Under the pieces are notes generated by a model, which saw only the letters and a list, made by a program, of their open reading frames with translations, made no database searches and was not told the origin of the DNA. The translations under genes were made by a program, and so were the position numbers. From a virus (lineage: Duplodnaviria; Caudoviricetes), in the IMG/VR virus record IMGVR_UViG_3300044638_004051, positions 1-60,549 of that record: DNA of 60,549 nucleotides. One strand, written 5' to 3'. Of this stretch, positions 9,137 through 34,901 are shown piece after piece (position 1 is the stretch's first letter; each line of letters opens with the position of its first letter).

Positions 9137-9264
9137 CGGTGGCTCCCCTTTCTGCGGGCCACCTTGCCCCCAATTCGTAGCCCATATCCCTATGGACTCA
9201 ATAGCTCTAAACAAGAGCTAACTGCTTGCCCCCCCATGTAGAGGAAGGAGTTAATGGTTTCCTA

Positions 9265-18594: not shown

Positions 18595-18597
18595 TGG

Positions 18598-19113
18598 ATG
18601 ACACGCCGCCTTACGCCCAAGCAACAGGCAGTCGCAGAGGCTGCGCTGCGATACGTTGCCCCGTCTATCGCCGTGTTCGTGCGCAGAAACCCAGACCTGC
18701 GTGCCACGATCAAGCGCGTCGATATGGACAGCGTTGCACAGATGGCGGTGTGCATGGCAGCGTTCACCTACAATCCGGCAAAGAGCCAGCCCACCACGTA
18801 CTTCGGGAGTGCGATCAGACACGCACTCTATCGGGCTGTGTTGAACCAGCAGAAGCTGGATGGGAGATACGTTCCGGTCGAGAAGATACTGGAACCACAG
18901 CCGCACATCGCCCGCACCCGGCAAGAGATGCGGGCGATGCGTGCGCTGCGGTCCCTGTCGGCGTATGACCGGACGCTATTGGAAGACAGGCTGATCGAGC
19001 AGGTCACGCTGGAGCAGCTGTCGGTGGAGCAGCACTGCGATCCTCGCACGATTAGCAAGCGAGTGAAGCAGGCGGTCGCAAAGCTACGCTCGATTGAGGG
19101 CGATCTGCCCTGA
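18598..19113 (+). CDS. Sigma-70-family RNA polymerase sigma factor
   Basis: Region 2-like DSVAQMAVCMAAFTYNPAK..PTTYFGSAIR; region 4 HTH LSAYDR...TLEQLS...RTISKRVKQAVAKLR. Confidence 0.75.
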   Translation: MTRRLTPKQQAVAEAALRYVAPSIAVFVRRNPDLRATIKRVDMDSVAQMAVCMAAFTYNPAKSQPTTYFGSAIRHALYRAVLNQQKLDGRYVPVEKILEPQPHIARTRQEMRAMRALRSLSAYDRTLLEDRLIEQVTLEQLSVEQHCDPRTISKRVKQAVAKLRSIEGDLP

Positions 19114-19878: not shown

Positions 19879-20188
19879 TGGGGTCTTCTCCTTTCCGTGT
19901 CTTGCGAACACGATCCGCGATGGCTTCGTTGAACACAGTGTCCCAATACTTCTTATGCCACGCATCGAAAGCGGCGATCATCTGCGTGCGATTGCTGGGG
20001 TCAAGCTCCTCCCACATGTAGTCGAAACAGAACCGCTGCATCTTGTTGCGGAATACCCAGTAACAGTTGCCGCTCTGCGCAATGTAGAGCCACCCCTTTC
20101 CCTTGCCGGGCAACCGCCAGCGGTAGATCAACTCCTCAATCTCCCCATTGGGCAGTCGGTACACGATGCGTTCGTTCACCTTTCCCAT
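19871..20188 (-). CDS. Hypothetical protein
   Basis: Coupled ORF in the minus-strand operon. Confidence 0.6.
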   Translation of the reverse strand: MGKVNERIVYRLPNGEIEELIYRWRLPGKGKGWLYIAQSGNCYWVFRNKMQRFCFDYMWEELDPSNRTQMIAAFDAWHKKYWDTVFNEAIADRVRKTRKGEDPNA

Positions 20189-20718
20189 CAGGCCACCGCT
20201 CCTTTCTTCGCGTAGTATGCTTGCTTCTTCCGATACGCAGCCAGCTTGGTCTTCGCCAATGCGAGCTTGCGTTCCCACTCACGCACCTTCTCGTCCGCTT
20301 CTTCCGCCCGACGCTCGATCAGCGTCAGCGGTTTCTTGCGTTCATACCTTCGCTTGGGCGGGGGCATCTGGGCAAGTAGGTCATACTCCGCAGCATGCTG
20401 GCGGAGATCGTTGACCCAGTCTTTCTCAAACTTCCGCCGATGCTCGTCACTGGTGTAGCAATACTGCACTGCCATCAGCAGCAGCGAGGACACGTCCTTG
20501 TCGGCAAGCGACTTGTACGAATCCACCTTCCCGCTTGTGGCCAGCGTGGCGAACAAGCGGTCGAGTATCGGCCGTGTCATTAAGGAGCCGCCCCAGTACG
20601 CGGGGTCCATCCCGCGCTTGCGACAGCGATCAACGTGCCGTGCATATGCACGGTCGAGGGACTGCTTGAGTATCCGCAGAATGTTCTGTTGAACTTGAGT
20701 CAGTGGTGGCTTTGTCAT
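20188..20718 (-). CDS. Hypothetical protein with basic coiled-coil tail
   Basis: GGAG RBS; coupled to the next gene. Confidence 0.6.
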   Translation of the reverse strand: MTKPPLTQVQQNILRILKQSLDRAYARHVDRCRKRGMDPAYWGGSLMTRPILDRLFATLATSGKVDSYKSLADKDVSSLLLMAVQYCYTSDEHRRKFEKDWVNDLRQHAAEYDLLAQMPPPKRRYERKKPLTLIERRAEEADEKVREWERKLALAKTKLAAYRKKQAYYAKKGAVA

Positions 20719-20720
20719 GG

Positions 20721-20795
20721 TCAGTTCTCCGAACGACATGAAATGAGGGACATGAACACCAGAGCAGCGATGAATGTGACAAGGTCAACCGGCAT
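20721..20795 (-). CDS. 24-aa hydrophobic peptide (not in ORF track)
   Basis: AAGGAGG RBS; MPVDLVTFIAALVFMSLISCRSEN exactly fills the gap. Confidence 0.45.
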   Translation of the reverse strand: MPVDLVTFIAALVFMSLISCRSEN

Positions 20796-22035
20796 AGGTG
20801 GGCACCTCCTTCGTGAGGTCGATCACCTTCGCCCACGCTGGCGGAGTCGAGTAGCTGGACCGTCGCACCAAAGCGATGATCAGCCTCGCCCGTGTGCGGT
20901 GGGCAGGCCAGTCGGTTTCCCCGTCAGTGACCAGCACAATCGCATCGGGACGCTGCTCGCGATCCTCGTCCTCGATTGCCTTGGCCATGTCGGTTCCGCC
21001 GTAGCCCTTGAACTCCCACTGCGACAGCGATGTGATCCGCTTCGCATCTTGCAACCGGCTGTCGAATGCCACGACACGGGGGCGATGCACCTTGCGTAGA
21101 CCGTGGGCAATCACAGTCAACGCACGGCTCTCGGTCCCAGACATGGAGCCAGACGTGTCGATGATGATCGAACACTCCGGAGCCAGCCGCACCACGCCAC
21201 GCTTGCGTGGGGTATCGGCCTGCTGCCTGCGGTTCAAGCGACGGTAGGTGTATTCCTCCGTGCCGATAGGCGAGGCAACCGACTTGGATACCACCGTCCG
21301 CAACTGATCGAACGGATCAGGCTGCGGATGCAGCCGGGCCTTGAGCGACTTGACCACCTCCCCCGGGACTGACCCGGGAGAGGATGACTCCAGCTGCTCG
21401 ATCTTCTTCTCTGCCTCACGCAGGCAGTGATCCACCATCGCATGCTCGACCGCAGACACGGGCTTCTCATACGGGCGTGGCACACCGTCGCTGTTGCTGC
21501 CCGCCTTGGCTGGATCGAGCGGGTTGCCGCCGTCTTCCTGCGGTTGTTCCGGTGTGTGCTGGAACAACAACCCGTAATACTGCTCGACCGTCATGCCCCG
21601 CACCAGTCCGGGGATGGAGAGGTAAGCGGTCTTCGTATCAGGGATGCAGCCGTCGATACGCACGATGCCGGACGGTTCGTCCAGACCGTGGTGCCTATCG
21701 AGCAACTGCTGGACAACCAGATCGGCGGCGAGATTCCACACATACCGCTCTCGCTCTGTCGCCTGTGGCACCGCCGCCTTGAAGCGGCGGCAGTGCGACA
21801 GGACAACGTGCATAACCTCATGCAGTAGGCAGTACGCCACCTCCATCGGAGTGAGCGAAGACATGAACTGCTCGTTGCAATACAGACGGTTGGCCTGATC
21901 CACTGCCATAGTTGGTATGGCTGTGGTCTCCACCGTCCGCATCATCGAGAAGACGTGGGTGAGGTAAGGCACCCACGTCCGAAGCCGCAGCTTCGCCTTG
22001 GTCAGCAGTCGCTGAACTGTGGTGAGAGTCTTCAA
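20785..22035 (-). CDS. Metallopeptidase + VWA domain protein (DUF2201-like)
   Basis: HEVMH zinc motif, WNLAADL; MIDAS DTSGSM, GGT, TDG. Confidence 0.85.
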   Translation of the reverse strand: MKTLTTVQRLLTKAKLRLRTWVPYLTHVFSMMRTVETTAIPTMAVDQANRLYCNEQFMSSLTPMEVAYCLLHEVMHVVLSHCRRFKAAVPQATERERYVWNLAADLVVQQLLDRHHGLDEPSGIVRIDGCIPDTKTAYLSIPGLVRGMTVEQYYGLLFQHTPEQPQEDGGNPLDPAKAGSNSDGVPRPYEKPVSAVEHAMVDHCLREAEKKIEQLESSSPGSVPGEVVKSLKARLHPQPDPFDQLRTVVSKSVASPIGTEEYTYRRLNRRQQADTPRKRGVVRLAPECSIIIDTSGSMSGTESRALTVIAHGLRKVHRPRVVAFDSRLQDAKRITSLSQWEFKGYGGTDMAKAIEDEDREQRPDAIVLVTDGETDWPAHRTRARLIIALVRRSSYSTPPAWAKVIDLTKEVPTYAG

Positions 22036-23123
22036 GCGGCACCTCCGATCTGGGAAACGAGCTTGCCGTACCGGGACAGCAGGTTCTTGGGAACACGGTA
22101 ATCCTTGTAGGTGTTGGTGATCTCGTTGAGAACCGGGCCGACGCAGTCGAGCATCCCGTTCTCACCCATCTCGATCAGCACCTTGACCGCCCCGTCCATA
22201 CGCTTCGACGCATGGTCATCGGACAGCGTTTCCAGAATCCCGCACGGCAGGAAGACCAGCTGATCGACACGGTCACCCGTGTAATCGATGGTCGCCTTGC
22301 CATCCACCACTTCGGCCGGATCGTACAGGTCTTTCGCAGCGATGCTCTGCATCAACTGCCCGGCACCCGCACTACCGACCATGCCAGTCGCGATCTGATT
22401 GATCACGTCGCCGTCTGCCTTGACCTTGTCCGCACCGGCGAGGCACCGGGCAAGGTTCGTCCACTGACGCAGCGAGGGAAACGCCCGCTCGTCATCGGGG
22501 ATACGCTTGCATCCACGCAGGGCAGGCTGACGCTGGAGCAAGTAGCCGACACGCCGCGTCCACTTCGGAACGTACGACGAGTAGTCGCCCACAATCGGGA
22601 AGTTGGTGGGCAACTTGAACTGCCCGCCGTTAAGCATGCCCTCGATCCACGAATCGAATGGGATTTCCCAGTCGTGGTGGTACAGGCGGTTCAACATCGA
22701 CGGCTCCAGCGGGCTGGAGTTGGGCGCGAGTTCCGGCGGATTCGCAGCGGCCACCCGGATAGTGGACGGGTGGAGAACCAGATCACCCACCCTGCCCTCG
22801 TTCAGCAGGGACAGGAGAGCAGGTCGCATTGACTGCGGGGCAGTGGTCAACTCATCAAAGATGATGCCCCACCCCGGCTGGGTCATGCGAACCAGCCACT
22901 CCAGATGCACCATGCGTGCGATGCCAGACTTCTTGTCGATGTCCGGCATGCCGCCCACGTCTTCCGGCATGTGCTGCGAAGGGATGAAGACGAACGGCTT
23001 GAGTCCCATCGCACGGATGAGAGCCTCAAGAAACGCCGTCTTGCACTCGCCCGTCCCGCCCCAAGCAATGCCCGGGACACCGCACTGAATCGCAATAAAC
23101 AAAGCCGCATTCAAGCAATCCAT
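22032..23123 (-). CDS. MoxR-like AAA+ ATPase
   Basis: Walker A variant GGTGECKT, Walker B IIFDE, AANPP, LNR; adjacent to VWA gene. Confidence 0.85.
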   Translation of the reverse strand: MDCLNAALFIAIQCGVPGIAWGGTGECKTAFLEALIRAMGLKPFVFIPSQHMPEDVGGMPDIDKKSGIARMVHLEWLVRMTQPGWGIIFDELTTAPQSMRPALLSLLNEGRVGDLVLHPSTIRVAAANPPELAPNSSPLEPSMLNRLYHHDWEIPFDSWIEGMLNGGQFKLPTNFPIVGDYSSYVPKWTRRVGYLLQRQPALRGCKRIPDDERAFPSLRQWTNLARCLAGADKVKADGDVINQIATGMVGSAGAGQLMQSIAAKDLYDPAEVVDGKATIDYTGDRVDQLVFLPCGILETLSDDHASKRMDGAVKVLIEMGENGMLDCVGPVLNEITNTYKDYRVPKNLLSRYGKLVSQIGGAA

Positions 23124-23182
23124 GATTGCAAACCTTTCAAGAAAAAATGAAACCCACCTAGCCACGGTGGGCAATCGAACAA

Positions 23183-24079
23183 TCAACCAGCGAAAGCCTT
23201 GAGTGCTTCCGCCCCGATCTTTTCGCGAGCAACCTGCGCTGCCTTCGCAACACGGGTGAACGCCTTGCCAAGCAGGGACTTGTTCGCCTGCATGGTTTCT
23301 TCAGCAGCGATCCACTGTTCCAGCCGCGTCTGCTGCCCGTTGCTGCGTGGCTTGGCACCACGTTGACGCATGTCTTCCGCGTCCTCGATCATGCCGTTGA
23401 ACACGGCCATGCTGCGCCGCTCCAACTCGCCACACACATGGGTGATCAACTCGCGGTTGACCACGGGCTGGAACCGCACGGTCTGCATGACCACGCCATG
23501 CCCAGACAGGGCAGAAGCCACGGTCTCGTACGCCGTGACAGAATCGGTGGGCATGTACCACACCACGCCTTCGTCACGCAGGAGAAACCCGTGCGATGCC
23601 TTGACCAGACCAGAGATAGCGTTGGTCAAGTCGTTGGCCGACACGAACTCGCACTGTTCACGCCAGCAGGCATCAGCCAGCTGGTTGATGGAGTTGCGGT
23701 GCTTCGCAATGGTGGGGCAGGACTTGCTCTCGATGTCGAGAATCTCGACGGCATAGCTGCCATCGTTCTGGCGCAGCACACCGAGCGAGAACAGGAACGG
23801 CAGGTCATTGCGTGTCTCGCCCACGATGAACCGCCTGACCTCGCACCCCACGGCATCCGACCGCCCGGCCAGACCCATGTACTTCACCTTGCCCCAGTCC
23901 GCCTCGCCGTGCGATGCGACGATCTCGCCAGCCGCACGATGCAGGGCACCGTAGTGATCGACCTTGGGCAGGAGATGCGTCATCCCCACCGTGTCGAACG
24001 CCTTCTCCGCCACGCCACGGGGAACACGCTTGCTCCCCCAGAACACGATCAAATGGTCACTCGTCAACTGCTTCGTCAT
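23183..24079 (-). CDS. Conserved partner of the AAA/VWA pair (DUF6744/DUF3150-like)
   Basis: LRDEGVVWYMP resembles the GGVYFVP motif; AAGGAG RBS; first gene of the triad. Confidence 0.5.
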   Translation of the reverse strand: MTKQLTSDHLIVFWGSKRVPRGVAEKAFDTVGMTHLLPKVDHYGALHRAAGEIVASHGEADWGKVKYMGLAGRSDAVGCEVRRFIVGETRNDLPFLFSLGVLRQNDGSYAVEILDIESKSCPTIAKHRNSINQLADACWREQCEFVSANDLTNAISGLVKASHGFLLRDEGVVWYMPTDSVTAYETVASALSGHGVVMQTVRFQPVVNRELITHVCGELERRSMAVFNGMIEDAEDMRQRGAKPRSNGQQTRLEQWIAAEETMQANKSLLGKAFTRVAKAAQVAREKIGAEALKAFAG

Positions 24080-24151
24080 GACAGCAAACTCCTTGTTGTG
24101 ATGGGCACCCGTTCAACATGCCCCCGTTGTCAAGAGCAGCACCGCGCCGCT

Positions 24152-24176
24152 CCCCCTTACCCTTCCACCCCCTGCC
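24152..24176 (-). repeat. G-rich motif copy (GGCAGGGGGTGGAAGGGTAAGGGGG)
   Basis: Near-identical to copies at 25707(-), 25918, 26871, 27948. Confidence 0.85.
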
Positions 24177-24233
24177 AAAAAACACCCCGGCCCCCGGGAA
24201 ACCAGCGGAAAACCACTGGGCCGGGGGCCGGGG
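24177..24233 (-). terminator. Rho-independent terminator
   Basis: CCCCGGCCCCCGG/CCGGGGGCCGGGG stem followed by TGTTTTTT on the minus strand. Confidence 0.7.
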
Positions 24234-24256
24234 TAGACACTGTCCTGACACTCTGA

Positions 24257-24538
24257 TCAGCGTCGGCTTTTCTTCGCCTTGCGATAGGCGTCACCGTCGT
24301 AGGTCAGCGTCATCTGACCGTCCTTGAATTCGCACTCGATGTGGCACTGGTGCAACAGTGCGTTGACCGCCCCAGTCAACACGTAATCCTCGTCCGTGTC
24401 GTACCCATTACGCACGGCATGGGTTGCCGCCGTAACGAGGGACAGAACTGCAATGGTTGGCAGTTCGGGATGGTGCATGTCCATCATGCAGTTGCACTTA
24501 GGCATACGCCGCTTGGTCTTCTTGGTCTTCGTCGCCAT
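24257..24538 (-). CDS. Hypothetical protein
   Basis: AAAGGA RBS; basic termini. Confidence 0.6.
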   Translation of the reverse strand: MATKTKKTKRRMPKCNCMMDMHHPELPTIAVLSLVTAATHAVRNGYDTDEDYVLTGAVNALLHQCHIECEFKDGQMTLTYDGDAYRKAKKSRR

Positions 24539-24551
24539 CACACAAATCCTT

Positions 24552-24743
24552 TCAGTGAGGAATAACTACCGTCTGCTCGATCTGCTCCAGCCGTGCAGCC
24601 AAACGCATGGCCGCGTCATACCGGACGGAGTGATCGTCTGGGCCACCCCAGATCAAGTCACTGTCATTGCACAACTCATCCATTGCTTCCTTCAGCAAGA
24701 AGAACTCCTGCGAAGACAGCATCAACGTGATCAGCCTGTCCAC
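24552..24743 (-). CDS. Hypothetical protein
   Basis: GGAGG RBS; coupled ORF. Confidence 0.55.
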   Translation of the reverse strand: MDRLITLMLSSQEFFLLKEAMDELCNDSDLIWGGPDDHSVRYDAAMRLAARLEQIEQTVVIPH

Positions 24744-25018
24744 TAGTTGTGACCCTCCAGTTGTTCACGCAACTCATCCGCCGTAAGCCCCTCCTCCGTG
24801 AAGCAATCCGCGTTGCCACGCTCATCACTGGAATACCCATTCCAGTAGGCGTAACTCACCTGCTCATTCCCGACACGCCCACCGCGCACCACGATCACAT
24901 CGTCCTCATGCCGATGCGTCTCGCTAACCGCAAGGGCGAGGTCATCCACATCCATGCCATGAATGCGGTCAATCAACACCTGACGCGCCTCTTCGTCACA
25001 CATTTCACGAACGTCCAT
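24743..25018 (-). CDS. Small acidic hypothetical protein
   Basis: AAAGGA RBS; D/E-rich. Confidence 0.6.
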   Translation of the reverse strand: MDVREMCDEEARQVLIDRIHGMDVDDLALAVSETHRHEDDVIVVRGGRVGNEQVSYAYWNGYSSDERGNADCFTEEGLTADELREQLEGHN

Positions 25019-25095
25019 CACTCACATCCTTTCCGTAAGAGTTCAAGAACAATACGAACCACAAGAAACAGAAGCTCCATCTCGCGATCATTCAT
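25018..25095 (-). CDS. 25-aa peptide (not in ORF track)
   Basis: AAGGAGG RBS; MNDREMELLFLVVRIVLELLRKGCE; TGATG coupling. Confidence 0.5.
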   Translation of the reverse strand: MNDREMELLFLVVRIVLELLRKGCE

Positions 25096-25190
25096 CACGC
25101 ACCTCCTTGTTGTGATGGGTATGTCAATAGCAACGGGGGTAGCCAGCACCGTGCCGACTACCCCCGTTGCACACAGGAAATCAAAAAGAA

Positions 25191-25652
25191 CTACTTGCTC
25201 GACTTGACCTCGACCTTGCTGGCAGCACCGAGTTGGCGGAGCAGTGCCTTGGCAAGGGCTTCGTAATCTACGGTCACATCGTCAACGTCGATCTCCAACT
25301 CACGGGCAACGTCAGACAGATCGAAGTGCCCCGCCACTTCAGACGCTTCCATGTGGCTCGCCACTTCGTAGTAGTCAATCTCGACATGCTGTGCGATGTC
25401 CTCGCTGTCGAGATGCTCGGCAATGTCCGATGCACTGACGCTAGTGTGCTTCGCCACATGGGTGTACAGATCGTCGGTGTCGATGTTGTCAAAGATCGCT
25501 CCGTAATCGAGATGCTCGGCCAGCTTCTTGACGTTGACGCGATCAGCGATTGCCTGCGCCATCCACTCCTTCGCCGTGTCACTCTTGAGAATGGCAGCGG
25601 CAATGGCGTTGATGATCGGGGTAGCAATGCGGGCAATGAACTTGGCAAACAT
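25191..25652 (-). CDS. Acidic tandem-repeat protein
   Basis: AGGAG RBS; ~9-11-aa repeats of the form D-x-x-(D/E)-(I/V)-A-x-H-(L/V/M/F). Confidence 0.7.
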   Translation of the reverse strand: MFAKFIARIATPIINAIAAAILKSDTAKEWMAQAIADRVNVKKLAEHLDYGAIFDNIDTDDLYTHVAKHTSVSASDIAEHLDSEDIAQHVEIDYYEVASHMEASEVAGHFDLSDVARELEIDVDDVTVDYEALAKALLRQLGAASKVEVKSSK

Positions 25653-25706
25653 GTGAACTCTCCTGTGTGTGAGCTTGGCCCCAGCTGTCTGACCGGCGGC
25701 GGCTCA

Positions 25707-25729
25707 CCCCTTCCCTTCCACCCCCTGCC
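25707..25729 (-). repeat. G-rich motif copy
   Basis: GGCAGGGGGTGGAAGGGAAGGGG, ~55 nt upstream of ATG 25652. Confidence 0.85.
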
Positions 25730-25809
25730 CAGCCCGGCCGCTGGCCGCTGGGGTAAGGCAGCGCGGGCGCGTCGTTAACGCATTCATTCACGTCATGCGG
25801 CCCGCACTA

Positions 25810-25984
25810 CAGCCCTGACGCTACGCCCTGCGTGAGTTCGGGCTAACGCTTCAACCGCGCTGACCTGACTGTCGTAGTCATTCGTTCATTGCACGGAATG
25901 AGAAGCCGCCGCTGCCCGGGGGGTGGAAGGGGTGGGGTAGCCAGCCGCTTGTGCTGGTGGGCATCTCAACAAGGAGACAGTGCA
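25810..25984 (+). repeat. Intergenic module copy 1 (box A, hairpins, G-box, RBS)
   Basis: CAGCCCTGACGCTACG at 25810; GGGGGGTGGAAGGGGTGGGG at 25918; CAACAAGGAG. Confidence 0.8.
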
Positions 25985-26764
25985 ATGGCTCGTCCGAATG
26001 GTGTGGTTCTCTACCGTGGCTATGGGTTTGACGGCACTCCCATCGTGGCAATCGCGGTGTTCGGTGAAAGCTCCAACTCCAAAACCGGGGGAATGATTCA
26101 AGTCCACATCCTGTGCGACAACGGTCAATCCCCTGTCGAGGCAGTGGTATCCGACGCAGACACTGCCATCTGTGATGGGTGCGTGTTGAAGGGCATCGCG
26201 TGGAAACTGCGTGGGTGCTACGTCAACGTGGCGACTGGTCCCGGTGCAGTCTGGCGGTGCTACATCGACGGCGGCTACCCGGACTACCAGCGTGCCGTGC
26301 ATGACGAGTATTTCGTGGGACGTGAGATCAGATGGGGTGCATATGGCGAGCCAGTGCTGATCCCACTGTCGATCATCTCGCACATCTGCGACCTGTCGAA
26401 CGGATGGTCTGGCTACACGCACCAGTGGCGGAAGGCTCGATACCGTCCGTATCGCCGGTACTTCATGGCGAGTACGCACACCATCGAGGACTGCCGGGAA
26501 GCCGTGAGTCTGGGATGGCGGTTCTTCAAGTCCGCCAACCAGCACACTGCCGAGGACATTGCCGCATTGCAGGCGATCACCCCCTGTTTCAACTGCCCCG
26601 CCAGTAAGGAACAAGGCCATCGGTTGCAGTGCTACCAGTGTCTGGCATGCAACGGACTTGAAACCCTGTCGGCCAACTACGCACAGCGTGCGTCAGTGTG
26701 GATCGACACGCACGGTGGGCTGGGCGTGATGCACACGTCGAAGCATCTGCCAATTCTCAACTGA
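25985..26764 (+). CDS. Cys-rich conserved phage protein (gp88-like / radical-SAM-derived family)
   Basis: SNSKTG, CDGC...CYV, RWGAYGEP, GYTHQW, CPAS...CYQCLAC. Confidence 0.6.
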   Translation: MARPNGVVLYRGYGFDGTPIVAIAVFGESSNSKTGGMIQVHILCDNGQSPVEAVVSDADTAICDGCVLKGIAWKLRGCYVNVATGPGAVWRCYIDGGYPDYQRAVHDEYFVGREIRWGAYGEPVLIPLSIISHICDLSNGWSGYTHQWRKARYRPYRRYFMASTHTIEDCREAVSLGWRFFKSANQHTAEDIAALQAITPCFNCPASKEQGHRLQCYQCLACNGLETLSANYAQRASVWIDTHGGLGVMHTSKHLPILN

Positions 26765-26945
26765 CAGCCCCAACGCTACGCCCCGTGACATACGGGGTAA
26801 CCGCGTAGTCCACGGCAAACGGGTAATGCCCGGCCACTCACGCACCACAACGTATGTGGGTGGCCGGGCCGCAGGGGGTGGAAGGGTGAGGGTAGGCCAG
26901 CCGGATGTTCCGGTGGGCATTTCAACAACAACGAAGGAGTGTCAC
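26765..26945 (+). repeat. Intergenic module copy 2
   Basis: CAGCCCCAACGCTACG at 26765; GCAGGGGGTGGAAGGGTGAGGG at 26871. Confidence 0.8.
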
Positions 26946-27299
26946 ATGACACACGCAGACGCAGTTCGCATGGTTCGTGGCAAGACCAACAAGACCAGCC
27001 GCAAGATCGGCAACAACACGTACGGAATCATTCACGACAACGGCGACGTGGGCATTGTGCTGCATAGCACGGAAGTGGTGACCATCCACGCGGACGGCAC
27101 GTATACCCTGCGATCCGGCGGGTGGCGGACAGTGACCACGAAGGATCGCATCAACACGTACTGCCCCTACCGTGTGACGCAGCGCAAGGGCGAGTGGTCC
27201 GTGTCTTACTGGAATGGCCACTCTCACAGCGACAGCATCGAGTTTGAAGACGGCATGTGCGTCAGTCACGACATGTTCAACCAGTTGGTCAACGCCTAA
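26946..27299 (+). CDS. Conserved small phage protein (GGWRTVTTKDRIN motif)
   Basis: AAGGAG RBS before ATG 26946. Confidence 0.7.
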   Translation: MTHADAVRMVRGKTNKTSRKIGNNTYGIIHDNGDVGIVLHSTEVVTIHADGTYTLRSGGWRTVTTKDRINTYCPYRVTQRKGEWSVSYWNGHSHSDSIEFEDGMCVSHDMFNQLVNA

Positions 27300-27327
27300 T
27301 CCCACACTCACAGAAAGGAACACTGCG

Positions 27328-27852
27328 ATGACACACGAAATCGAGCGATTCAATGTGGGCAATGTCACTGTCGTGATCACCCATGATCCCGATCCCCTCA
27401 ACCCGAGAAAGGAGTTCGACAATGCCGGGACAATGGTGTGCTTCCACAGACGCTATGCGTTGGGAGACACGCACGACTTCGGCACACCCGATGACTTCCG
27501 CACATGGCGGGCGGAGAACGAAGGCGACATTGTCGCGATCATGCCACTGTTTCTCTACGACCACAGTGGCCTGACAATGCGGACCACTCGCTTCGATTGC
27601 CCGTGGGATAGTGGGCAAGTGGGCTGGATTTACCTAACCCGCCAACGGCAGGAAGAGTGGGGCATTGCAGACCCCTCCGCCACACTCACGGTTGAAGTGG
27701 ACACATACGACGAATACCTGCAAGGGAGCGTCTATTGCTTCAGCATTGTGCAAGACGGGCAAGACGTTGACGGATCGTGCGGATACATCGGGCTGGATCA
27801 CTGCCGCACAGAGGCACGGCACACGGCCGAAGGGTACGCCTTGCAGCCCTGA
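27328..27852 (+). CDS. Conserved mobile-element protein (YDHSG...PWDSGQVG motif)
   Basis: AAAGGA RBS; motif typical of phage/ICE accessory genes. Confidence 0.7.
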   Translation: MTHEIERFNVGNVTVVITHDPDPLNPRKEFDNAGTMVCFHRRYALGDTHDFGTPDDFRTWRAENEGDIVAIMPLFLYDHSGLTMRTTRFDCPWDSGQVGWIYLTRQRQEEWGIADPSATLTVEVDTYDEYLQGSVYCFSIVQDGQDVDGSCGYIGLDHCRTEARHTAEGYALQP

Positions 27853-28028
27853 CGCTACGTCGTGCGAGTTCGCGATCATCGCGAATTGCTCGACACTATA
27901 TGCAAGAAGATTCCCCCCTCCGTTGTCACGGTGCCCATCCGGACAACGGCAGGGGGTGGAAGGGTAGGGGTGTGGCAAGCTGGCAACGTCGCCAGCCCCA
28001 CGGGTTCATTGTTTGAAAGGGTTACACC
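27844..28028 (+). repeat. Intergenic module copy 3
   Basis: CAGCCCTGACGCTACG at 27844; GGCAGGGGGTGGAAGGGTAGGGG at 27948. Confidence 0.8.
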
Positions 28029-28487
28029 ATGGCCGCGAAGACGAAGACTGCGACGAAGACTTTCACGGAAGCCGATTTTGAGGCTGAAATCGCACGACGG
28101 CTGGCGGAGAGGGAGAAGTCTGCGAAGGCCGCGAAGGATGCGGCAAAGGCCGCGAAGGATCGTCCGGGTTTGAATGCCATTCCCACGACGGAAGCGGACA
28201 CGGAAAACAACGTGTTGGCCCGGTGTGTGTACAACACGGGGGACCACGCCATTCACGGCACGGCCGTCATGGTCAACCACGACGGGAAGCATCTCCCGCG
28301 ATTCGGGCTGTCTGTCCGTGGCATCTTCCGGATTCCGGGGGACACGGACACTGACGCGGAACGGCTGGTTTCCGCGATGGTGGCAAAGGCCGAACACGCT
28401 CCGGCCATGCTCGCCATGCTCACCAAAGCCTACACCGCCGCCGCGAAAGGCCACACCTTCCGCGTGAAAGAGAAGGCCGCGAAGTAG
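28029..28487 (+). CDS. Hypothetical Ala/Lys-rich protein
   Basis: ORF between module copy 3 and a strong terminator. Confidence 0.7.
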   Translation: MAAKTKTATKTFTEADFEAEIARRLAEREKSAKAAKDAAKAAKDRPGLNAIPTTEADTENNVLARCVYNTGDHAIHGTAVMVNHDGKHLPRFGLSVRGIFRIPGDTDTDAERLVSAMVAKAEHAPAMLAMLTKAYTAAAKGHTFRVKEKAAK

Positions 28488-28494
28488 TCGCACG

Positions 28495-28525
28495 AATCCC
28501 CCGGGGAAACCCGGGGGATTTTTTT
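28495..28525 (+). terminator. Rho-independent terminator
   Basis: AATCCCCCGGG-GAAA-CCCGGGGGATT followed by a T run. Confidence 0.85.
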
Positions 28526-29197
28526 ATGTACCTACCTACTGGTGTACAAACGTACAGTATGGAAACAGGCGGCACTCTTTCATTCCCCACCCGCCACCAT
28601 GCGGCGAGTGATGGAACCTTCGACCCGGACGTAAGTGGCTGGCAGCAAAGGAGTTACGACAAGCCCACCCCGTCCACCCCCCAATCCATACATATATATA
28701 TATATGTCCCGCTCTTGGATTTTTTCCAGATTTGCAAAGGGGCAACAGCACCGTCTCGCAGCCCCCTGCTGCACCGTTTCGCAGCCGCTGTTGACATGCT
28801 GTCCATAACTAGAGCAGCAGGCTAGAGAGCATCCGGCAACCGCTACCGGCCCCGTGGCTCTGGCCGTGCAAGCCCGAGGCGTAACGCAGCCCGACAACGG
28901 CTTGGCGACGAGGTGGACCGGGCAGTGGCATACCAGCCCCGGGTGGAGCGATCCGCCCGGGGCTGTGCTGTTCCCAGTGACTACTCCGCAGTCCGCCAGC
29001 CACCACCCCCTAGAGATTCTGCCCAAAGATTTCTCTGGCTGCGTGTCGCAAGTGCCCTGCTACCAGCGTGTTCCAGATTCCAGAACGAGAGAGAAAGTCA
29101 TTCTTGTAGCTGTGCAGTTTGGTAAAGGTTCTGAATAACAAGCCTATCCCAGTAACCATCCCCGTAACGCTCTTGACAGGTTCTTACGCTGGGGGGC
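28526..29197. other. Large non-coding region; candidate genome terminus/pac site or origin
   Basis: (TA)n palindrome 28690-28707, C-runs, direct repeat 28748/28771, long hairpin 28934-28965. Confidence 0.45.
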
Positions 29198-29836
29198 ATG
29201 GGCCTAGACATCCTTACACCGAAGGGACAGGAGACGGTCGCTCAACTAGAGCGGGCGGTCTCTCTCTGGCACGGGCACCGGACCAACCGGATGTACGTTG
29301 CCACCCCTGCTGACGAGCCTGCCTCTGTAGATGCCGTCCTAGCGGATGGCGAGGGGGTTGTGCGGGCGGTTGTCGAGACCAAGTGCCGCAGCAACATCAG
29401 CTTGGAGGGGTTCCGCACCACCTTCAAGAACGAGTGGCTTGTCACGATGGACAAGCTGACAAGGGCGTGCCGGGTGAGCGAGATGCTGTGCGTCCCGCTG
29501 GTGGGCTTCCTCTATCTGGTGGACGAGGACGTGCTGCTCGTCCAGAAGCTGACCGACTCCAAAGGCCAGTTCTGCGTGCCTTTCCGGTGCGACAACACGG
29601 TGACGCAGAAGACCGTGAACGGAGGGGAGATTGTCAGAGCCAACGCCTACATCGACATGTCCAAGTGCCGGGTCTACGAACGAAGACCCTCTGGTGCGGT
29701 TGCATCGGGAGTACCGGGAGGAGTGCATCCGGCTGGGGAAGTATCGCCCCTTCAGTCCGGAGGAACTTCAGCAGGCCGAGGCCCGGCACAAGGCACGGTG
29801 CGACCGAATCCCGAACCAGCCCACACGAAAGCGTAA
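29198..29836 (+). CDS. PD-(D/E)XK nuclease-like protein
   Basis: VDAVL...VVETKCR. Confidence 0.6.
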   Translation: MGLDILTPKGQETVAQLERAVSLWHGHRTNRMYVATPADEPASVDAVLADGEGVVRAVVETKCRSNISLEGFRTTFKNEWLVTMDKLTRACRVSEMLCVPLVGFLYLVDEDVLLVQKLTDSKGQFCVPFRCDNTVTQKTVNGGEIVRANAYIDMSKCRVYERRPSGAVASGVPGGVHPAGEVSPLQSGGTSAGRGPAQGTVRPNPEPAHTKA

Positions 29837-29863
29837 GCACCCTCCGAAAGGTACGGCTGACTG

Positions 29864-30070
29864 ATGACCATGCCATACGAGCGTTACCGCGCCATCCACA
29901 ATACACGCGAGTTTCTGATGGATTTGCTCGATCCACGCAAGACTCCTCGCGTACCGAAACCAGTCCGCCAAGCGGCGGCTCGATGCTTGCGGCACTACCC
30001 CATGTCTCACGACATGGAACAGGTGGCCCGCAAGTGTCCGGCGACGTTTGGCACTGGCAAGTGTGATTAG
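29864..30070 (+). CDS. BPSL0761-like small protein
   Basis: MTMPYERYRA...TREFL..L...VR..A..CLRHYP. Confidence 0.7.
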   Translation: MTMPYERYRAIHNTREFLMDLLDPRKTPRVPKPVRQAAARCLRHYPMSHDMEQVARKCPATFGTGKCD

Positions 30071-30102
30071 GACCGACCCCAGCCAAGGAAGGAAGGATTC
30101 GT

Positions 30103-30402
30103 ATGCGTTGGTTTGTTCTTGCGTCTCTGCTTCTGACTGCGTCCGTTGCCAGTGCCGATAGCACCTACTATCGGTCTCGCACGGTCACTGTCTTCCGCTC
30201 CGCTCAGGAGGATGCGGATGACATGGCTCGGACTGGCGTTCTCCGCCACCGGGGCTGTTCGTCGTACGAAGGCGTAGGTTTCTCGACCGTGTCGGCCGAT
30301 CACGCCATTCGCAACTGCTGTTTCTGGGGCCAGCGGAAGGTCAGGGAGGTCGCGGTTGCTCGCGGCCCGCGTGGCTGGTTTGCCTGCGTCCGCTACTGGT
30401 GA
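30103..30402 (+). CDS. Secreted minimal CAP/SCP-like protein
   Basis: Signal peptide; AQ..A..MA..G.LRH...EGVG...NCC.WG...VARG..GWFAC. Confidence 0.6.
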   Translation: MRWFVLASLLLTASVASADSTYYRSRTVTVFRSAQEDADDMARTGVLRHRGCSSYEGVGFSTVSADHAIRNCCFWGQRKVREVAVARGPRGWFACVRYW

Positions 30403-30472
30403 TGTTCATCCCGGTTTCCGCAGGGTTCCGGTCCACCAAAAACCCTGCTTTCCATATTCGCGAAAGAAGAAA

Positions 30473-30994
30473 ATGACCAAGCGAGACAGCCAGTTGCGTG
30501 AGTACGCCAGCGAGGCAGCGGACATCGTCACCCGGCTGCGGGACCGGGCCTACTCGTTCAAAGCCCCCGATCCTTTGTTGGAGGAAGCGGCGGATGAGAT
30601 CGAGCGGCTGCGGCAATTTGATAGGTTGCAGCCTATCGAACCCGCCGCCGCTACACCCGCCACGCACGCTACACCGGGCGATGGTAGCTTGCAGGGCGAG
30701 GGTACATTGCCCCACTCGTATCGGGACAACGACGAAAAACGTGGCGTATCTGATACGAAAAGGGGGCCTGTGGCGTGGGCAATCCTTCACTTAGACCAGC
30801 AGTACGTCAGTCTTCTGCGAGAGATGGCAGAGGCTCACAATGTGTTTGCTGCGCCGATTGTACCGCTCTACCGCTCGCCCACGCTCACCAACGAGGAGCG
30901 GGAGGCGGTTGAGGCGGCAATCTCGTCCGAGTATTCAAGAGGCGCGTGGCACTGGGCAGACACGCTCCGCTCGCTGCTGGAGCGTCTCCAGTGA
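30473..30994 (+). CDS. Hypothetical mosaic phage protein
   Basis: DIVTRLR...EAADEIERLR and PVAW...PLY motifs common in phage accessory genes. Confidence 0.6.
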   Translation: MTKRDSQLREYASEAADIVTRLRDRAYSFKAPDPLLEEAADEIERLRQFDRLQPIEPAAATPATHATPGDGSLQGEGTLPHSYRDNDEKRGVSDTKRGPVAWAILHLDQQYVSLLREMAEAHNVFAAPIVPLYRSPTLTNEEREAVEAAISSEYSRGAWHWADTLRSLLERLQ

Positions 30995-31209
30995 TCACTC
31001 GCATCCACATCAATCAGCACATCATCCGCGCCAATAAGAAGCATGGGCTTAATGAGGCACCCATCTCAATAAAGCGAGGCGGGAAAGTCATCAAAGCGAA
31101 CGAGGTAGAGGTACACGGACCATGCACCGTTGTGTATAGTCCCTGCAAGCCTCTGTCGTGCGGTGCCCGGGTGTGGATCGAGACCACGGCAGACATCACC
31201 ATCAAGTGA
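30991..31209 (+). CDS. Conserved small phage protein
   Basis: IHINQHIIRAN...PLSCGARVWIET. Confidence 0.7.
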   Translation: MITRIHINQHIIRANKKHGLNEAPISIKRGGKVIKANEVEVHGPCTVVYSPCKPLSCGARVWIETTADITIK

Positions 31210-31216
31210 GGTAGGC

Positions 31217-31483
31217 ATGAGCATCATCAGCAAAGGTCGGAAGTATGAGTGCATGGGTGGCCCTCTGTGTGGAACACGGGTGCCAGCACATGCAGATGAC
31301 GGCATGTACACGGTGGACGATCACGGCAGGCCGCACTTCTACCGCCTGATCCGTGTGATCAGACCTCCGAACGAGGTGGCAACCTACTACCACTACTTCG
31401 GAAGCAACCGTGCGGTAGCGGAAAACGCCCATCCGACACTGCGGCCACACGAACGCATGTTCCGCGCACGCAAGCGCAAATAG
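31217..31483 (+). CDS. Hypothetical protein
   Basis: GAGG RBS; GGPLCG motif. Confidence 0.6.
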   Translation: MSIISKGRKYECMGGPLCGTRVPAHADDGMYTVDDHGRPHFYRLIRVIRPPNEVATYYHYFGSNRAVAENAHPTLRPHERMFRARKRK

Positions 31484-31520
31484 CTCCCTCTCGACCTAGC
31501 CGCCTAGCCAGCGGCATGTG

Positions 31521-31567
31521 CGGCCCCCGGCGTCTTATCCTTTCAACGCCGGGGGCCGTTTCTTTTT
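31521..31567 (+). terminator. Rho-independent terminator
   Basis: CGGCCCCCGGCGT/ACGCCGGGGGCCG stem followed by TTTCTTTTT. Confidence 0.8.
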
Positions 31568-31614
31568 GCCCATAAGTAAGAAAGACAGTTTGTTCTTTCT
31601 TACAGGAGACAGCC

Positions 31615-31770
31615 ATGCCAAGGGGCGTGCCGAAGAGCGACGGGCAGAAGATTGGCGAGAAATTCGATCTGGAGTACCGCAAGATGAAGCGGTCTCGCAA
31701 GGACGAGCGAGCGGCCAAGAAGGGCTGCAAAGATTGCGGCTGCAAGGGCAAATGCACCTGCGGGAAGTAG
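31615..31770 (+). CDS. Small basic Cys-rich protein (not in ORF track)
   Basis: AGGAG RBS; MPRGVPKS...KKGCKDCGCKGKCTCGK. Confidence 0.6.
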   Translation: MPRGVPKSDGQKIGEKFDLEYRKMKRSRKDERAAKKGCKDCGCKGKCTCGK

Positions 31771-31773
31771 GTC

Positions 31774-32145
31774 ATGGGCGGCACGGCCACAATCGAAGAA
31801 CTGCAACGGTACGTGTGGGAGTTGCTGCCCACGCGGAAGCTCGCGATTGACCGCGAAATCGCTAACGACGCGATCATCGTTGCCGTACAGTGCTGGCCTG
31901 TCGAGGTACTGTCGCAGGCCGCAGTGGGATCGCAGGAGTGCGTGCAGGCGTTGAACTCGCTTGTCAATGACATCCGCCGCATGCTGTCCTGCATCTACGG
32001 TGCCGACCGCTTCATGGCTTACTGGACTGTTGGGTTGCGCACCCTGATACCGAATGCGGTCGAGATCATCTACGACTGGTGGAGAAGGCGGAAAGACAAC
32101 CGGGCCAAGATCATTACGTGGCGAAGGAAGTGGGTGGTTGAATGA
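31774..32145 (+). CDS. Hypothetical protein
   Basis: ORF ATGA-coupled to the next gene. Confidence 0.6.
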   Translation: MGGTATIEELQRYVWELLPTRKLAIDREIANDAIIVAVQCWPVEVLSQAAVGSQECVQALNSLVNDIRRMLSCIYGADRFMAYWTVGLRTLIPNAVEIIYDWWRRRKDNRAKIITWRRKWVVE

Positions 32146-34901
32146 GCGAACTAGCACGAAAGCTAATCCGTGCATACCACGGTAGCCCGCACAGCTTTGA
32201 CAGGTTTGACGCCAGCAAGATCGGGTCTGGTGAGGGTGCGCAAGCATACGGGCACGGGCTGTATTTTGCTGGTAACGAAGACATCGCGAGGTATTACCGC
32301 GACAAGCTGTCACCTGCTGGCGAGCCAAATGTAGAGGTTGGCGGCAAGCCAGTAGAGGGAGGCGGGCAACTGGGATTTGAGGCTGTATTTGGATACCCGC
32401 AAGCAGACGGCGCGCCTTTTCTGGCAGCAGACCCGTGGGCCGGGATTCCCACAAGAGACAAAGCAATTCGATTTCTCAAGATGGGCGCATTCGGAGGGGA
32501 TGACATACCAACAGAACGAGCATTCGACACGGCAAGGGGCTTGATATGGTCGCCGGAAATCAACGGCGGAAATCCTGCGCCGGAATACGAGCAGTCGCTC
32601 TTGCGCGAACTAGACAGGCTGCAAGCAGAAGGCGCACAGCTAGCATGGCCGCAGTCTGGGCACATGTACGAAGTTGCGCTAGACACAGACCCAGATCAGC
32701 TGATTAAGGGCGATCTTCCTGTGAAGTGGCAAACACCTCAAGTGCAGGAAGCGTTAAAGGAGTTGGGTTACAGGACAAGCAACGGGCGAGGCGAGCGCGG
32801 TGGCTTGCAGGCGTACAACAACGTAGTCACTAAGGCGGAAAACAAATTTGCGACCGAGGGCGCGATGCCTAGGGATATCGCGGCGGCATCGCGTATGGCG
32901 AAAGATTCCGTAACCAGAGACATGGTGGACATGGGAATAAACGGAATCCAGTATTTGGACAACACATCGCGCCGCAAGGGCTATGGCTCCAGCAACTACG
33001 TGATGTTTCCCGGCACGGAAGAAATGATCCGCATCATTCGCAAATACGGTTTTGTTCCACCGGCATTGGCCGCAGCAGGTGCAGCAGGTCAGGCGCAGGC
33101 CGGATCAGACCTCGACGCTGCGATGAAGGGCATGCGTCAGGCAAATGCCACGGGACGAGCCGCTGCCGCAAACGGAGCCAACCCGAGAGAAGCCAACGCT
33201 GCCGCTCTGGCGAGCTTCGTGCCAGAGTCCACCCGCAGCGGCCAGCCTCTGTCGCAGTACCTTGGCAGTTTGTCGGAGCAAGACGCTGCCATGACGCCGC
33301 GTGGCATGTACGCCACGGCAGTGCAGGACTCGATGACCGCCCCTGTCATATCCGTGTCGGCAGCGGCGCAGGTGCTGGGCGACAAATCCGTTTCGGATCG
33401 TTATCAGGGTGGATATCTAAGCCCAATGGATTTTGCTCGCGAGCAGAGCCTGCAAGAGTCGCGTGCGCTGTTTGAGCAGCGAAAGGCGGCAGGCCCGTTC
33501 CCTCCCGGTGCAGAAGAGGCGTTCGTCCAGTGGTCGCAGCAGCAGGCCGACAGGCGAGCCGACAGTGTCGCGGGTGTGCTGGCTGGTACGTACGCGACAC
33601 GGAACCCGGCAATCAACCAAACCGCTGGTCAGCTGCGGCAGCTTGTGGCCATGCACACCCCCAATCAAGAGTTCGCACAGTTTGGCGGCAGGACAGCGGC
33701 CGAGGACAAGCAGGCCCGGCAGCAGTACGGCTCTGATGCGGAATGGCGGCTTACGGAAGGCGGGCAGAAGAACTACGACGCACAGCGTGTGGCGGAGTTG
33801 TGGTCCGCTACGCAGGATGACTACACCCCTGCTAGCACCATGTCGCAGGTCGCAAGAGCAGTTGGTGGCGGCGTAACAAAGGCATACGACGCCATGGTTC
33901 CCGGCAGCATTCCCAAGGCTGGGCAGGCATGGAAAGAAATGGGGATGATCAACCAGCCGGACGGGAAGTACGAATATGCTGCACGTCTGTATGACCGAGG
34001 TGCGCAGCACCCGGGCAACGTCTACACGGCAGAAGGCTTGCCGAAGTACGGCACGGTAGACCCAACCACGGCGGCTGGGCTTGGAAACGCCACGGCTCTC
34101 AACCAGTCCTTCCCTCTAGCGGCGTGGTATCAGCAGGTCGGCGCGCCGATCCGTGAGGTAGCCAACTGGATGGGCAACGACCGCGAGTACGGTGACCCGA
34201 ACATGGTCCGCAACCTGCGTGAGCTTCGGGCCGGATTTAATCGCGTGACCCCGGTTGTCCCTGACGGCGTGGACCCGCAGGCGTTCCAGACGATGGGCCA
34301 GAAGCTGTCCGGTGCAGACCAACGCTTGTCAGGATGGACATCGGCGTATGGTGGCCCCGCATTTGCCGACGCTTACAACGCCACGTTGGGCAAGGTCACA
34401 GGCCAGATGGATCGCACGTACCTGTCGCCTTTTGCCCAGACAATGGCGGAAATCCCGGCGGAGATCGTGGGCGACCCTGTCAACGCCGCATTCAACGTCG
34501 TTCTCCCGGTGGCCAGCGGAATAAAGGGAGCCATAACCGGCGGCATAGCTGGCGGCGCACGGCAGGCCGCGATGCAGGGCGGCGGCTCTCTGATTCGGAA
34601 GCTGGCATCTGCGCCCAAGCGTTCGCTCGATGACATCATCGAGGAGAACGTCGAGGGGCTAGGTTTTGGCAGTGCCGTTGCTGGCATCCAGTCCTACTTC
34701 TCTCCAGAGAAAAAGAACCTCCTGATGGGAGAGGCGGACCCGAATGACCCGGGGTATGACAAGAAGCTGGAAGAGGCATCAGTGCAGGCACGCACTGAAC
34801 AGATGGATGCGGCGCGGGAGTACGGTGACGCGGTTGGCCGCAAGTCACCGAAGCCAACCCTGAAGACGCCAATGCCGCAGACGTTCATGCTGACTCGATA
34901 A
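32142..34901 (+). CDS. Putative virion protein with N-terminal ADP-ribosyltransferase-like (polyvalent-protein) domain
   Basis: AYHGSPHSFDRFDASKIGSGEGAQAYGHGLYFA...GIQYLD...NYVMF. Confidence 0.7.
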   Translation: MSELARKLIRAYHGSPHSFDRFDASKIGSGEGAQAYGHGLYFAGNEDIARYYRDKLSPAGEPNVEVGGKPVEGGGQLGFEAVFGYPQADGAPFLAADPWAGIPTRDKAIRFLKMGAFGGDDIPTERAFDTARGLIWSPEINGGNPAPEYEQSLLRELDRLQAEGAQLAWPQSGHMYEVALDTDPDQLIKGDLPVKWQTPQVQEALKELGYRTSNGRGERGGLQAYNNVVTKAENKFATEGAMPRDIAAASRMAKDSVTRDMVDMGINGIQYLDNTSRRKGYGSSNYVMFPGTEEMIRIIRKYGFVPPALAAAGAAGQAQAGSDLDAAMKGMRQANATGRAAAANGANPREANAAALASFVPESTRSGQPLSQYLGSLSEQDAAMTPRGMYATAVQDSMTAPVISVSAAAQVLGDKSVSDRYQGGYLSPMDFAREQSLQESRALFEQRKAAGPFPPGAEEAFVQWSQQQADRRADSVAGVLAGTYATRNPAINQTAGQLRQLVAMHTPNQEFAQFGGRTAAEDKQARQQYGSDAEWRLTEGGQKNYDAQRVAELWSATQDDYTPASTMSQVARAVGGGVTKAYDAMVPGSIPKAGQAWKEMGMINQPDGKYEYAARLYDRGAQHPGNVYTAEGLPKYGTVDPTTAAGLGNATALNQSFPLAAWYQQVGAPIREVANWMGNDREYGDPNMVRNLRELRAGFNRVTPVVPDGVDPQAFQTMGQKLSGADQRLSGWTSAYGGPAFADAYNATLGKVTGQMDRTYLSPFAQTMAEIPAEIVGDPVNAAFNVVLPVASGIKGAITGGIAGGARQAAMQGGGSLIRKLASAPKRSLDDIIEENVEGLGFGSAVAGIQSYFSPEKKNLLMGEADPNDPGYDKKLEEASVQARTEQMDAAREYGDAVGRKSPKPTLKTPMPQTFMLTR

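Follow-up and report, generated by a model that had tools for sequence, protein, structure and literature searches.

Repeated two-box intergenic modules in a lake-water phage as putative terminator and promoter-region cassettes

Three copies of an intergenic module with two conserved sequences, here called box A and the G-box, lie in the accessory ("early-type") region of an uncultured lake-water phage that is probably temperate. The stretch of DNA analysed, hereafter the window, is one complete IMG/VR virus record (IMGVR_UViG_3300044638_004051; 60,549 nt, linear, CheckV completeness estimate 100). We propose, with somewhat more confidence than doubt, that the modules are composite intergenic regulatory cassettes, each ending one transcription unit and starting the next. 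The positions, orientation and conservation of the modules, the concerted change of the G-box between lineages and the distribution of hairpins are observed here; from them we infer promoter activity, terminator activity and a trans-acting factor. GC-rich hairpins that follow a gene would act as terminators or insulators against upstream transcription, and the G-box would be a DNA-level recognition element of the promoter region that defines the restart. It would be read by a phage-lineage-specific transcription factor, or by RNA polymerase with the help of such a factor. Transcription would start shortly downstream, giving an mRNA in which the gene is preceded by a small 5' hairpin and then by a conserved leader (CATCNCAACAAGGAG). 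Box A would be a second conserved site belonging to rightward units only. Our guess, held with low confidence, is that it serves as an upstream regulator or insulator site and is not the terminator itself.

Box A (CAGCCCYRACGCTACG) occurs exactly at 25810-25825, 26765-26780 and 27844-27859, always on the plus strand. With up to two mismatches it has 5 matches against a shuffle mean of 0.69, a count reached in 0 of 100 shuffles. The conserved G-box spans about 23 nt (CAGGGGGTGGAAGGG, two to three variable nucleotides, then GGGGT). Its core, GGGGGTGGAAGGG, is exact at 25919, 26874 and 27952 on the plus strand and at two further sites on the minus strand, 24160-24172 and 25713-25725, where no box A accompanies it. 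All five exact copies fall within 24152-27972; two weaker sites carry one or two mismatches, and the resulting 7 matches at up to two mismatches compare with a shuffle mean of 2.0 (7 reached in 0 of 100 shuffles). With both boxes present at three sites and both above shuffle expectation, the repeated two-box module described in an earlier reading of these letters without database searches (the original prediction) is real. That reading also entertained a complex requiring both sites, an idea not supported here, 2 of 5 G-boxes standing without a box A. Every exact G-box is intergenic, points in the direction of the downstream gene and lies 68-95 nt before the first ATG of its unit. Its 13-nt exact core has no dyad symmetry, and box A and the G-box are not inverted repeats of each other. 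Two other readings were dropped: a G-quadruplex, four G3 runs being present in only some copies, and a MITE-like (miniature inverted-repeat transposable element) unit, the module ends not being inverted repeats.

On a gene map drawn from codon-position GC, the modules and lone G-boxes all sit within 24.1-28.0 kb, ahead of small genes of unknown function. Module 1 lies in a divergent region with no plus-strand gene upstream. It comprises a box A (CAGCCCTGACGCTACG, 25810-25825) and a G-box (CGGGGGGTGGAAGGGGTGGGGTA, 25917-25939), the latter 68 nt before the ATG of gene c1 (25985-26764; 259 aa, phrog_2554, Cys-rich). Module 2 opens with a box A and the hairpin CCCCGT..ACGGGG (together 26765-26797), abutting the c1 stop codon, and its G-box (26872-26894) is 74 nt before the ATG of c2 (26946-27299; 117 aa, Pfam Kyano_Gp96, phrog_554). 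Next comes c3 (27328-27852; 174 aa, phrog_6186), whose TGA stop is contained in the box A of module 3; this box and its hairpin TTCGCGA..TCGCGAA cover 27844-27885, and the G-box (27950-27972) is 79 nt before the ATG of c4 (28029-28487; 152 aa, no family). A ribosome-binding site and then an ATG (25985, 26946 and 28029) follow the three modules, and a canonical intrinsic terminator (28494-28528; 12-bp stem, then T7) closes this rightward, plus-strand array. On the minus strand, G-box S2 (CAGGGGGTGGAAGGGAAGGGGTG, 25705-25727) stands 75 nt before the ATG of a 153-aa gene. The leftward genes run in the order 25652-25191, 25021-24743, 24743-24552 and 24541-24257, and end at a canonical intrinsic terminator (24180-24230) whose T-run stops a few nucleotides upstream of G-box S1 (24152-24174). 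S1 lies 95 nt before the ATG of an operon formed by a 298-aa gene (24079-23183), a MoxR-type ATPase and a DUF2201 protein.

The distribution of hairpins carries the terminator half of our proposal. Strong predicted hairpins are present in 4 of the 4 modules that follow a gene, as against 0 of 3 in divergent regions, which is the pattern expected if hairpins stop upstream transcription. In modules 2 and 3 of the window a second and much stronger hairpin stands directly before the G-box. That of module 2 (26828-26869, plus strand; 15 bp) ends 2 nt before the G-box and is a putative terminator or insulator; the long hairpin of module 3 (27913-27956, plus strand) uses the G-run of the G-box as its 3' arm, and its C-run and stem are conserved in a diverged relative, phage B (contig L193). 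Folding z-scores are -3.72 and -5.06 for window modules 2 and 3 (0 of 200 shuffles of module 2 fold as well), -6.09 and -3.06 for modules 2 and 3 of phage B, and +0.59, -0.67 and -0.63 for the first modules and the divergent region. The hairpin directly after box A is weak in module 1 (GCCC/GGGC, 4 bp); in phage B the hairpins after box A have T-rich tails. Of the stems originally listed, GCCC/GGGC and CCCCGT/ACGGGG are found as given, and module 3 has TTCGCGA/TCGCGAA in place of TCGTG/CGCGA.

Site S1 speaks to the restart. Its G-box lies just past the T-run of a canonical terminator, with 95 nt to go to the next ATG, so a restart signal must fall within that stretch, and so little room upstream argues against the G-box being a 5'-untranslated-region element of a transcript begun further up. 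A G-box acting as the restart signal would explain both its place behind the S1 terminator and its presence ahead of every unit, whichever the strand. Terminator, G-box and gene order at S1 are kept in two relatives, phage B and G001. The latter, the only record returned when IMG/VR was searched with the ATPase, is 65-75% identical to the window in DNA and lacks window 24.5-34 kb. It retains the terminator and a G-box variant (CAGGGGGTAGATGGGG) before its homolog of the 298-aa gene, and its single G-box copy reads GGGGGTAGATGGG.

Phage B, the one informative relative that covers the array, is made up of two IMG/VR contigs from the same data set: L168, among 25 viral loci retrieved with an alignment of homologs of the phage's sigma-like protein, and L193, retrieved with the two-box pattern. 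As in the window, a terminator and a G-box stand ahead of its 298-aa gene, and its divergent region contains a leftward G-box, a box A (L168:18066, orthologous to that of module 1) and a rightward G-box. L168 continues with a phrog_2554 gene (cA), a box A with a terminator-like hairpin and a G-box at the contig end; L193 runs from a c3 homolog through box A, G-box, c4 homolog and terminator into a conserved non-coding region. The modules thus occupy the same gene junctions in both phages. Judged by sequence comparison, gene order and gene families between the modules are the same despite strong protein divergence: c4 and its counterpart share 30% identity (E 5e-10), and c1 and its counterpart align at a BLASTP E of 0.65, though both match phrog_2554. 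The modules are a real and repeated intergenic unit that is under selection and, as the original prediction suggested, they most plausibly organise the expression of the small genes.

The two boxes have diverged differently. In phage B the core of box A (CAGCCCTGAC) is kept and its 3' half varies, and 5 of 5 phage B G-boxes read GGGGGGGAGAA(G/A)G(G/A) against GGGGGTGGAAGGG in 5 of 5 window copies. By this comparison the G-box change is concerted and lineage-specific, and would fit either co-evolution with a trans-acting factor or homogenisation among copies. The distance from the start of box A to the T of GGGGGT, previously regarded as constant, is indeed 114, 114 and 113 nt in window modules 1, 2 and 3, but 109, 114 and 126 nt in phage B, with differences that are not whole helical turns; the spacing seen in the window is therefore no strict requirement.

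The shared gene order also bears on whether genes are captured or shuffled by recombination at the modules. These could be integron-like, similar to the res sites of a resolvase, or short homologies for the ERF annealing protein, as in exchange between the promoter early stem-loops (PeSLs) of T4-type phages. The modules are direct repeats flanking small genes of unknown function, and the phage encodes an ERF annealing protein with a PD-(D/E)XK nuclease as well as the two recombinases already recognised, namely a small serine recombinase (Resolvase domain, 19084-19965, E 2.4e-16) and an integrase-like gene with a weak Phage_integrase match (8276-9214, E 6.9e-6, slightly short of the Pfam cut-off). 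The concerted G-box change could likewise stem from conversion between copies, relatives' assemblies break at the modules, an unrelated open reading frame (ORF) contains an exact box A, and the region holds different genes at deeper divergence. We nevertheless consider a recombination role very improbable. Order and families are the same in the window and phage B (c1 and cA both phrog_2554, c3 homologous, c4 30% identical), which runs counter to cassette shuffling. Low-depth contigs of four lake runs, which leave parts of the window uncovered, contain no joint between module copies, and no trace there of the excised cassettes once envisaged; the single joint listed, where one contig with a 20-nt side skips 132 nt (24712-24845), is unrelated to the modules. 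At this depth, and with a single relative covering the array, rare exchange may have gone unseen. The recombinases lie 6-16 kb away, and of 25 related loci, 24 retain the sigma gene together with that of the serine recombinase, most of them without modules. The outcomes named as refuting the original prediction are realised only by half: gene content is fixed, but the modules are conserved, and by a linear scan they are not plain sigma-70 promoters.

The resemblance to integrons is limited. attC sites are imperfect inverted repeats (R''/L''-L'/R') with a GTTRRRY core that fold as a bulged hairpin, and integron arrays combine an adjacent integrase, attI and Pc with mostly promoterless cassettes whose content and order vary between close relatives. 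The modules share with such arrays a repeated element at the stop of each small gene and the gene-element-gene layout. However, they have no inverted-repeat architecture, no attC-type core, no supported closing helix and no adjacent IntI, attI or Pc, the integrase-like gene being 16 kb away; each unit has its own conserved upstream motif, ribosome-binding site and presumed promoter; and gene content is fixed between the window and the one relative that covers the array. Plasmid leading-region promoters of the Frpo/ssi type are built from a long imperfect hairpin whose stem rebuilds -35 and -10 elements in single-stranded DNA. In a linear scan the module arms contain no -35/-10-like hexamers, the first modules have no hairpins, and this phage is not known to pass through a single-stranded DNA stage.

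Several observations on the lake-water material and on box A concern the repeats as such. Relatives' assemblies stop at or near modules: G005 ends inside a G-box (L168:19028-19040), and the part missing from G001 is exactly window 24.5-34 kb. It is probably these repeats that interrupt short-read assemblies. In run X8 one lake contig matches only 36 nt (window 26858-26893) around the module 2 G-box, with unrelated flanks, and this piece may be the G-box of another, unassembled relative. A solitary exact box A at 17253-17268 (plus strand) lies inside the ORF 17151-18200, in the linker after that ORF's membrane anchor. It is an exact 16-nt copy of the box in module 2, is followed by no G-box, is not conserved in the G001 homolog and may be a short conversion tract.

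Folding of the RNA raises a different possibility, that the modules act within polycistronic RNA through processing, stability or translation control, or as an attenuator in which the C-rich box A and the G-rich G-box pair alternately. Minimum-free-energy folds of 3 of 3 window modules do pair CAGCCCY with GGGGGTG, a G-T pair in the hairpin after G-box S1 is tolerated on the sense strand only, and box A abuts or contains a stop codon. The closing helix, however, has 0 compensatory changes, its two outer pairs are broken in 3 of 3 phage B modules, and sliding the partner by +1 gives an equally good register, so a folded element closed by pairing of the two boxes is not supported. An RNA-level role also sits poorly with the two G-boxes that lack a box A, the position of S1 just behind a terminator T-run, a box-to-box spacing that ranges from 109 to 126 nt, first modules without significant structure, and the absence of any Rfam match at E < 0.5. 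We regard this explanation as quite unlikely.

The asymmetry and orientation of the G-box invite comparison with repressor roadblocks. Cluster A mycobacteriophage stoperators (PMC6550527; PMC9283540) are asymmetric 13-14-bp sites, oriented with transcription, 20-30 in number genome-wide and mostly away from promoters; their motif varies among related phages, and they are bound by the cognate monomeric immunity repressor. G-boxes of this kind, bound by a phage repressor, would stop elongation or initiation in the lysogen, with one or two long operons and no promoter per module. The asymmetric site with its 13-nt exact core, always oriented with transcription (5 of 5 copies), matches what that account gives for Cluster A stoperators (PMC6550527). 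The motif differs between related phages, as immunity specificities do, and integrase-like and recombinase genes are present. In a more distant relative, L189, a partly palindromic 16-mer that recurs 11 times, some 25 nt ahead of start codons, looks operator-like. We still judge a roadblock role unlikely. Instead of 20-30 sites genome-wide there are only 5, clustered within 4 kb and each heading a unit; S1 lies directly behind a strong terminator, where a restart is needed and a roadblock would be of no further use; no candidate for the repressor emerged, with no repressor-like protein recognised in 50 ORFs scanned against Pfam; and the hairpins and box A would be left unexplained.

Several results weigh against the terminator and promoter-region proposal itself. 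The hairpins of the window modules, that of module 2 included, lack U-tracts. A sigma-70-type -35/-10 pair was found in or after no module, by linear scan or by eye, and a sigma-70 consensus scan of 16000-32500 gave 3 sites, 0 of them in modules, against a shuffle mean of 4.0; the modules are GC-rich. We found no element at a fixed distance downstream of the G-box. The sole recognisable transcription factor is a sigma-like protein of the extracytoplasmic-function (ECF) type encoded at 18598-19113, and it is probably not the G-box reader because its region-4 helix is invariant across lineages, including relatives that have no G-box and carry quite different repeats. With the sigma an unlikely reader, the concerted G-box change has to come from a fast-evolving factor or from homogenisation among copies. 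Box A, moreover, is kept in module 1 of both phages with no gene upstream and is absent from the leftward units, a distribution that our proposal does not account for; its conservation there also means that it is not simply part of a terminator. Taken with the concerted change of the G-box and the stray box A inside an ORF, this leaves a plain terminator-promoter model incomplete.

These gaps could be filled by a more radical idea, in which the stretch from box A to the G-box is the recognition unit of an undescribed control system. The G-box would represent a G-rich, non-sigma-70 promoter class read by a fast-evolving phage factor, box A would be a loading, enhancer or anti-insulator site for rightward genes, and the repeats could also serve the ERF annealing protein to homogenise or exchange accessory genes. 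We think this distinctly unlikely as it stands. Two known promoter classes were considered and dropped by eye: sigma-54, there being no GG-N10-GC, and an ECF-type promoter with GGAA as its -35, for which a candidate CGT(C/T) lies 17-24 nt away at a distance that is not fixed.

A second motif class is also present: (T)GCTMTTGACA, followed after 6-8 nt by TAnnnY, at window positions 12905, 13497 and 29170 (plus strand) and 24136 and 25130 (minus strand). The (T)GCTMTTGACA motif precedes operons in the window and in G001, L166, L167, L168, L172, L174, L181, L189 and L193. The spacing of its two parts is far too short for a sigma-70 -35/-10 pair. Because it is conserved across the group, it appears a better candidate than the G-box for the promoter of the phage sigma.

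Among known systems, the PeSLs of T4-type phages are closest in architecture and genomic setting to the modules. In the accounts cited, a PeSL is a repeated intergenic motif in a variable, ORFan-rich region, just upstream of ORFs, that contains a sigma-70 consensus promoter (-35, -10 and AT-rich upstream region) and a stable stem-loop acting as terminator or attenuator, and recombination between copies gives rise to indels, replacements and mini-circles (Arbiol et al. 2010, PMC2839356; Comeau et al. 2014, PMC4122927). Both elements are small, begin at the stop of the upstream gene, contain a stable GC-rich stem-loop as well as a repeated motif of the promoter region, and run up to the Shine-Dalgarno sequence and start codon of the next gene. 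Our modules are likewise confined to an ORFan-rich variable region, ahead of small genes. They differ in having no detectable -35/-10, a conserved motif that is G-rich and lineage-specific, and an additional conserved box A about 110 nt upstream. There are 3 full modules and 2 lone G-boxes here, in comparison with the roughly 50 PeSLs of those accounts. This 60.5-kb phage has no recognisable T4-type link, and neither exchange nor mini-circles were seen. The start-associated sequence (SAS) of Cluster K mycobacteriophages is described as a 13-bp motif overlapping the ribosome-binding site just before the start codon, and the extended SAS (ESAS) as a 17-bp inverted repeat just upstream (PMC3203893). 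These share with the modules a two-part conserved arrangement at the starts of a subset of genes, kept across related phages (PMC3203893). Here, however, the distance to the start codon is 68-95 nt from the G-box and about 180 nt from box A, and neither box has the form of an inverted repeat. We therefore view the modules as a variant of phage intergenic regulatory cassettes that falls outside the PeSL, SAS/ESAS and stoperator families, and not as a new kind of system.

Beyond G001 and phage B, searches returned little. The 'phages' collection had no match to the window DNA or to the sigma protein. IMG/VR searches with c1 gave just three unrelated low-GC loci and those with c3 and with a 919-aa protein none, and metagenome contigs searched with the ATPase alignment yielded one 1.4-kb fragment. 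The exact G-box 15-mer has 35 single-copy matches in IMG/VR and the box A pattern at least 114 single matches, which we read as chance and did not check one by one. The combined two-box pattern hit 4 viral and 23 genome stretches; proteins in common with the window occur only in the two phage B contigs and not in the other 25. A profile hidden Markov model of six modules, run against the window and 62 loci, found only its own members and the lone G-boxes.

In more distant relatives the small genes of the matching region, where gene content differs at deeper divergence, are preceded by other repeats, again lineage-specific. In L189 (13900-20150, minus strand) the repeat is the 16-mer GCGGATTTCCGGCAAC, each of its 11 copies lying some 25 nt ahead of a small gene's start codon, an array denser than that of the window. 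Further intergenic repeats, likewise lineage-specific, measure 45-67 nt and each include a hairpin; they are found at L182:17828, 19318 and 20239, at L184:18071, 19544 and 20286, and at L187:18127 and 19479. Since these distant relatives have the same sigma/recombinase pair and yet other repeats, placing repeats before small genes would seem to be a general habit of this phage group.

The rest of the genome is that of a tailed phage in its gene content, with terminase, portal and tail proteins and a helicase, a GC content of about 0.60 and near-identical DNA across many lake-water metagenomes; none of the 24 runs listed is an RNA data set. Most of its proteins match no known family. The sigma-like protein (171 aa) has two domains. 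The window's own copy gives a weak match to region 4; of 32 homologs in an alignment, 8 match Sigma70_r2 and 11-12 match region 4, and relatives are named 'sigma-70 family' by the Joint Genome Institute (JGI). Its gene has 234 relatives at E <= 0.001, the 120 listed being all at least 68% identical, and many homologs sit on contigs of about 60 kb. In the window the sigma gene is convergent with that of the serine recombinase. The same succession is found in 24 of the 25 related viral loci (L165-L189), the 25th ending within the sigma gene. A T7-type promoter was dropped as well: no phage RNA polymerase was recognised among the window proteins, and the 919-aa protein is an ART-PolyVal polyvalent protein. 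No DNA-binding protein other than the ECF-like sigma was identified among the window proteins, and no tRNA was found.

Some further features border the modules. A mini-ORF of seven codons (25795-25818, ATG..CAG CCC TGA, MRPALQP*) ends in the box A of module 1; its last four residues (ALQP*) are identical to those of c3, which also ends in a box A, and it may be a duplication relic. A leader before the Shine-Dalgarno sequence, (G/C)CCAT(C/T)NCAACAAGGAG, is common to several units and to phage B (window 24084-24101, 25088-25105, 25960-25976 and 26916-26940). Between the two divergent G-boxes lies a 26-nt block, GGGTAAGGnnGCGCGGGCGCGT (25752-25777), that is identical in phage B but for two adjacent positions, its surroundings having diverged; its conservation makes it a candidate operator or promoter part. 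In the 710-nt non-coding region 28488-29197 there is an (AT)n run, and one block of it, ATATATGTCCCGCTCTTGGATTTTT, is conserved in phage B. The region also holds a G-box-like site with one mismatch (28669-28681, minus strand), whose membership of the set is doubtful because the lineage-specific change of phage B is not followed there. Within the same region, segment 28877-28911 has a much higher depth in lake contigs, with unrelated flanks in two runs; it could represent a replication origin, or else an attP core that also occurs in a host attB.

Should the G-box prove to be a promoter class, its G-rich sequence and the lack of a recognisable -10 would point to an undescribed specificity factor in an abundant group of freshwater phages, and would open a way to study when these phages express their fast-evolving accessory genes. 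On the practical side, it is probably because of the repeats that metagenomic assemblies of these phages break at just this region. Every branch of the group has lineage-specific repeats, which suggests a general means of tying variable genes into the phage programme, one that would parallel the PeSLs of T4 and the stoperators of mycobacteriophages in a different virus lineage.

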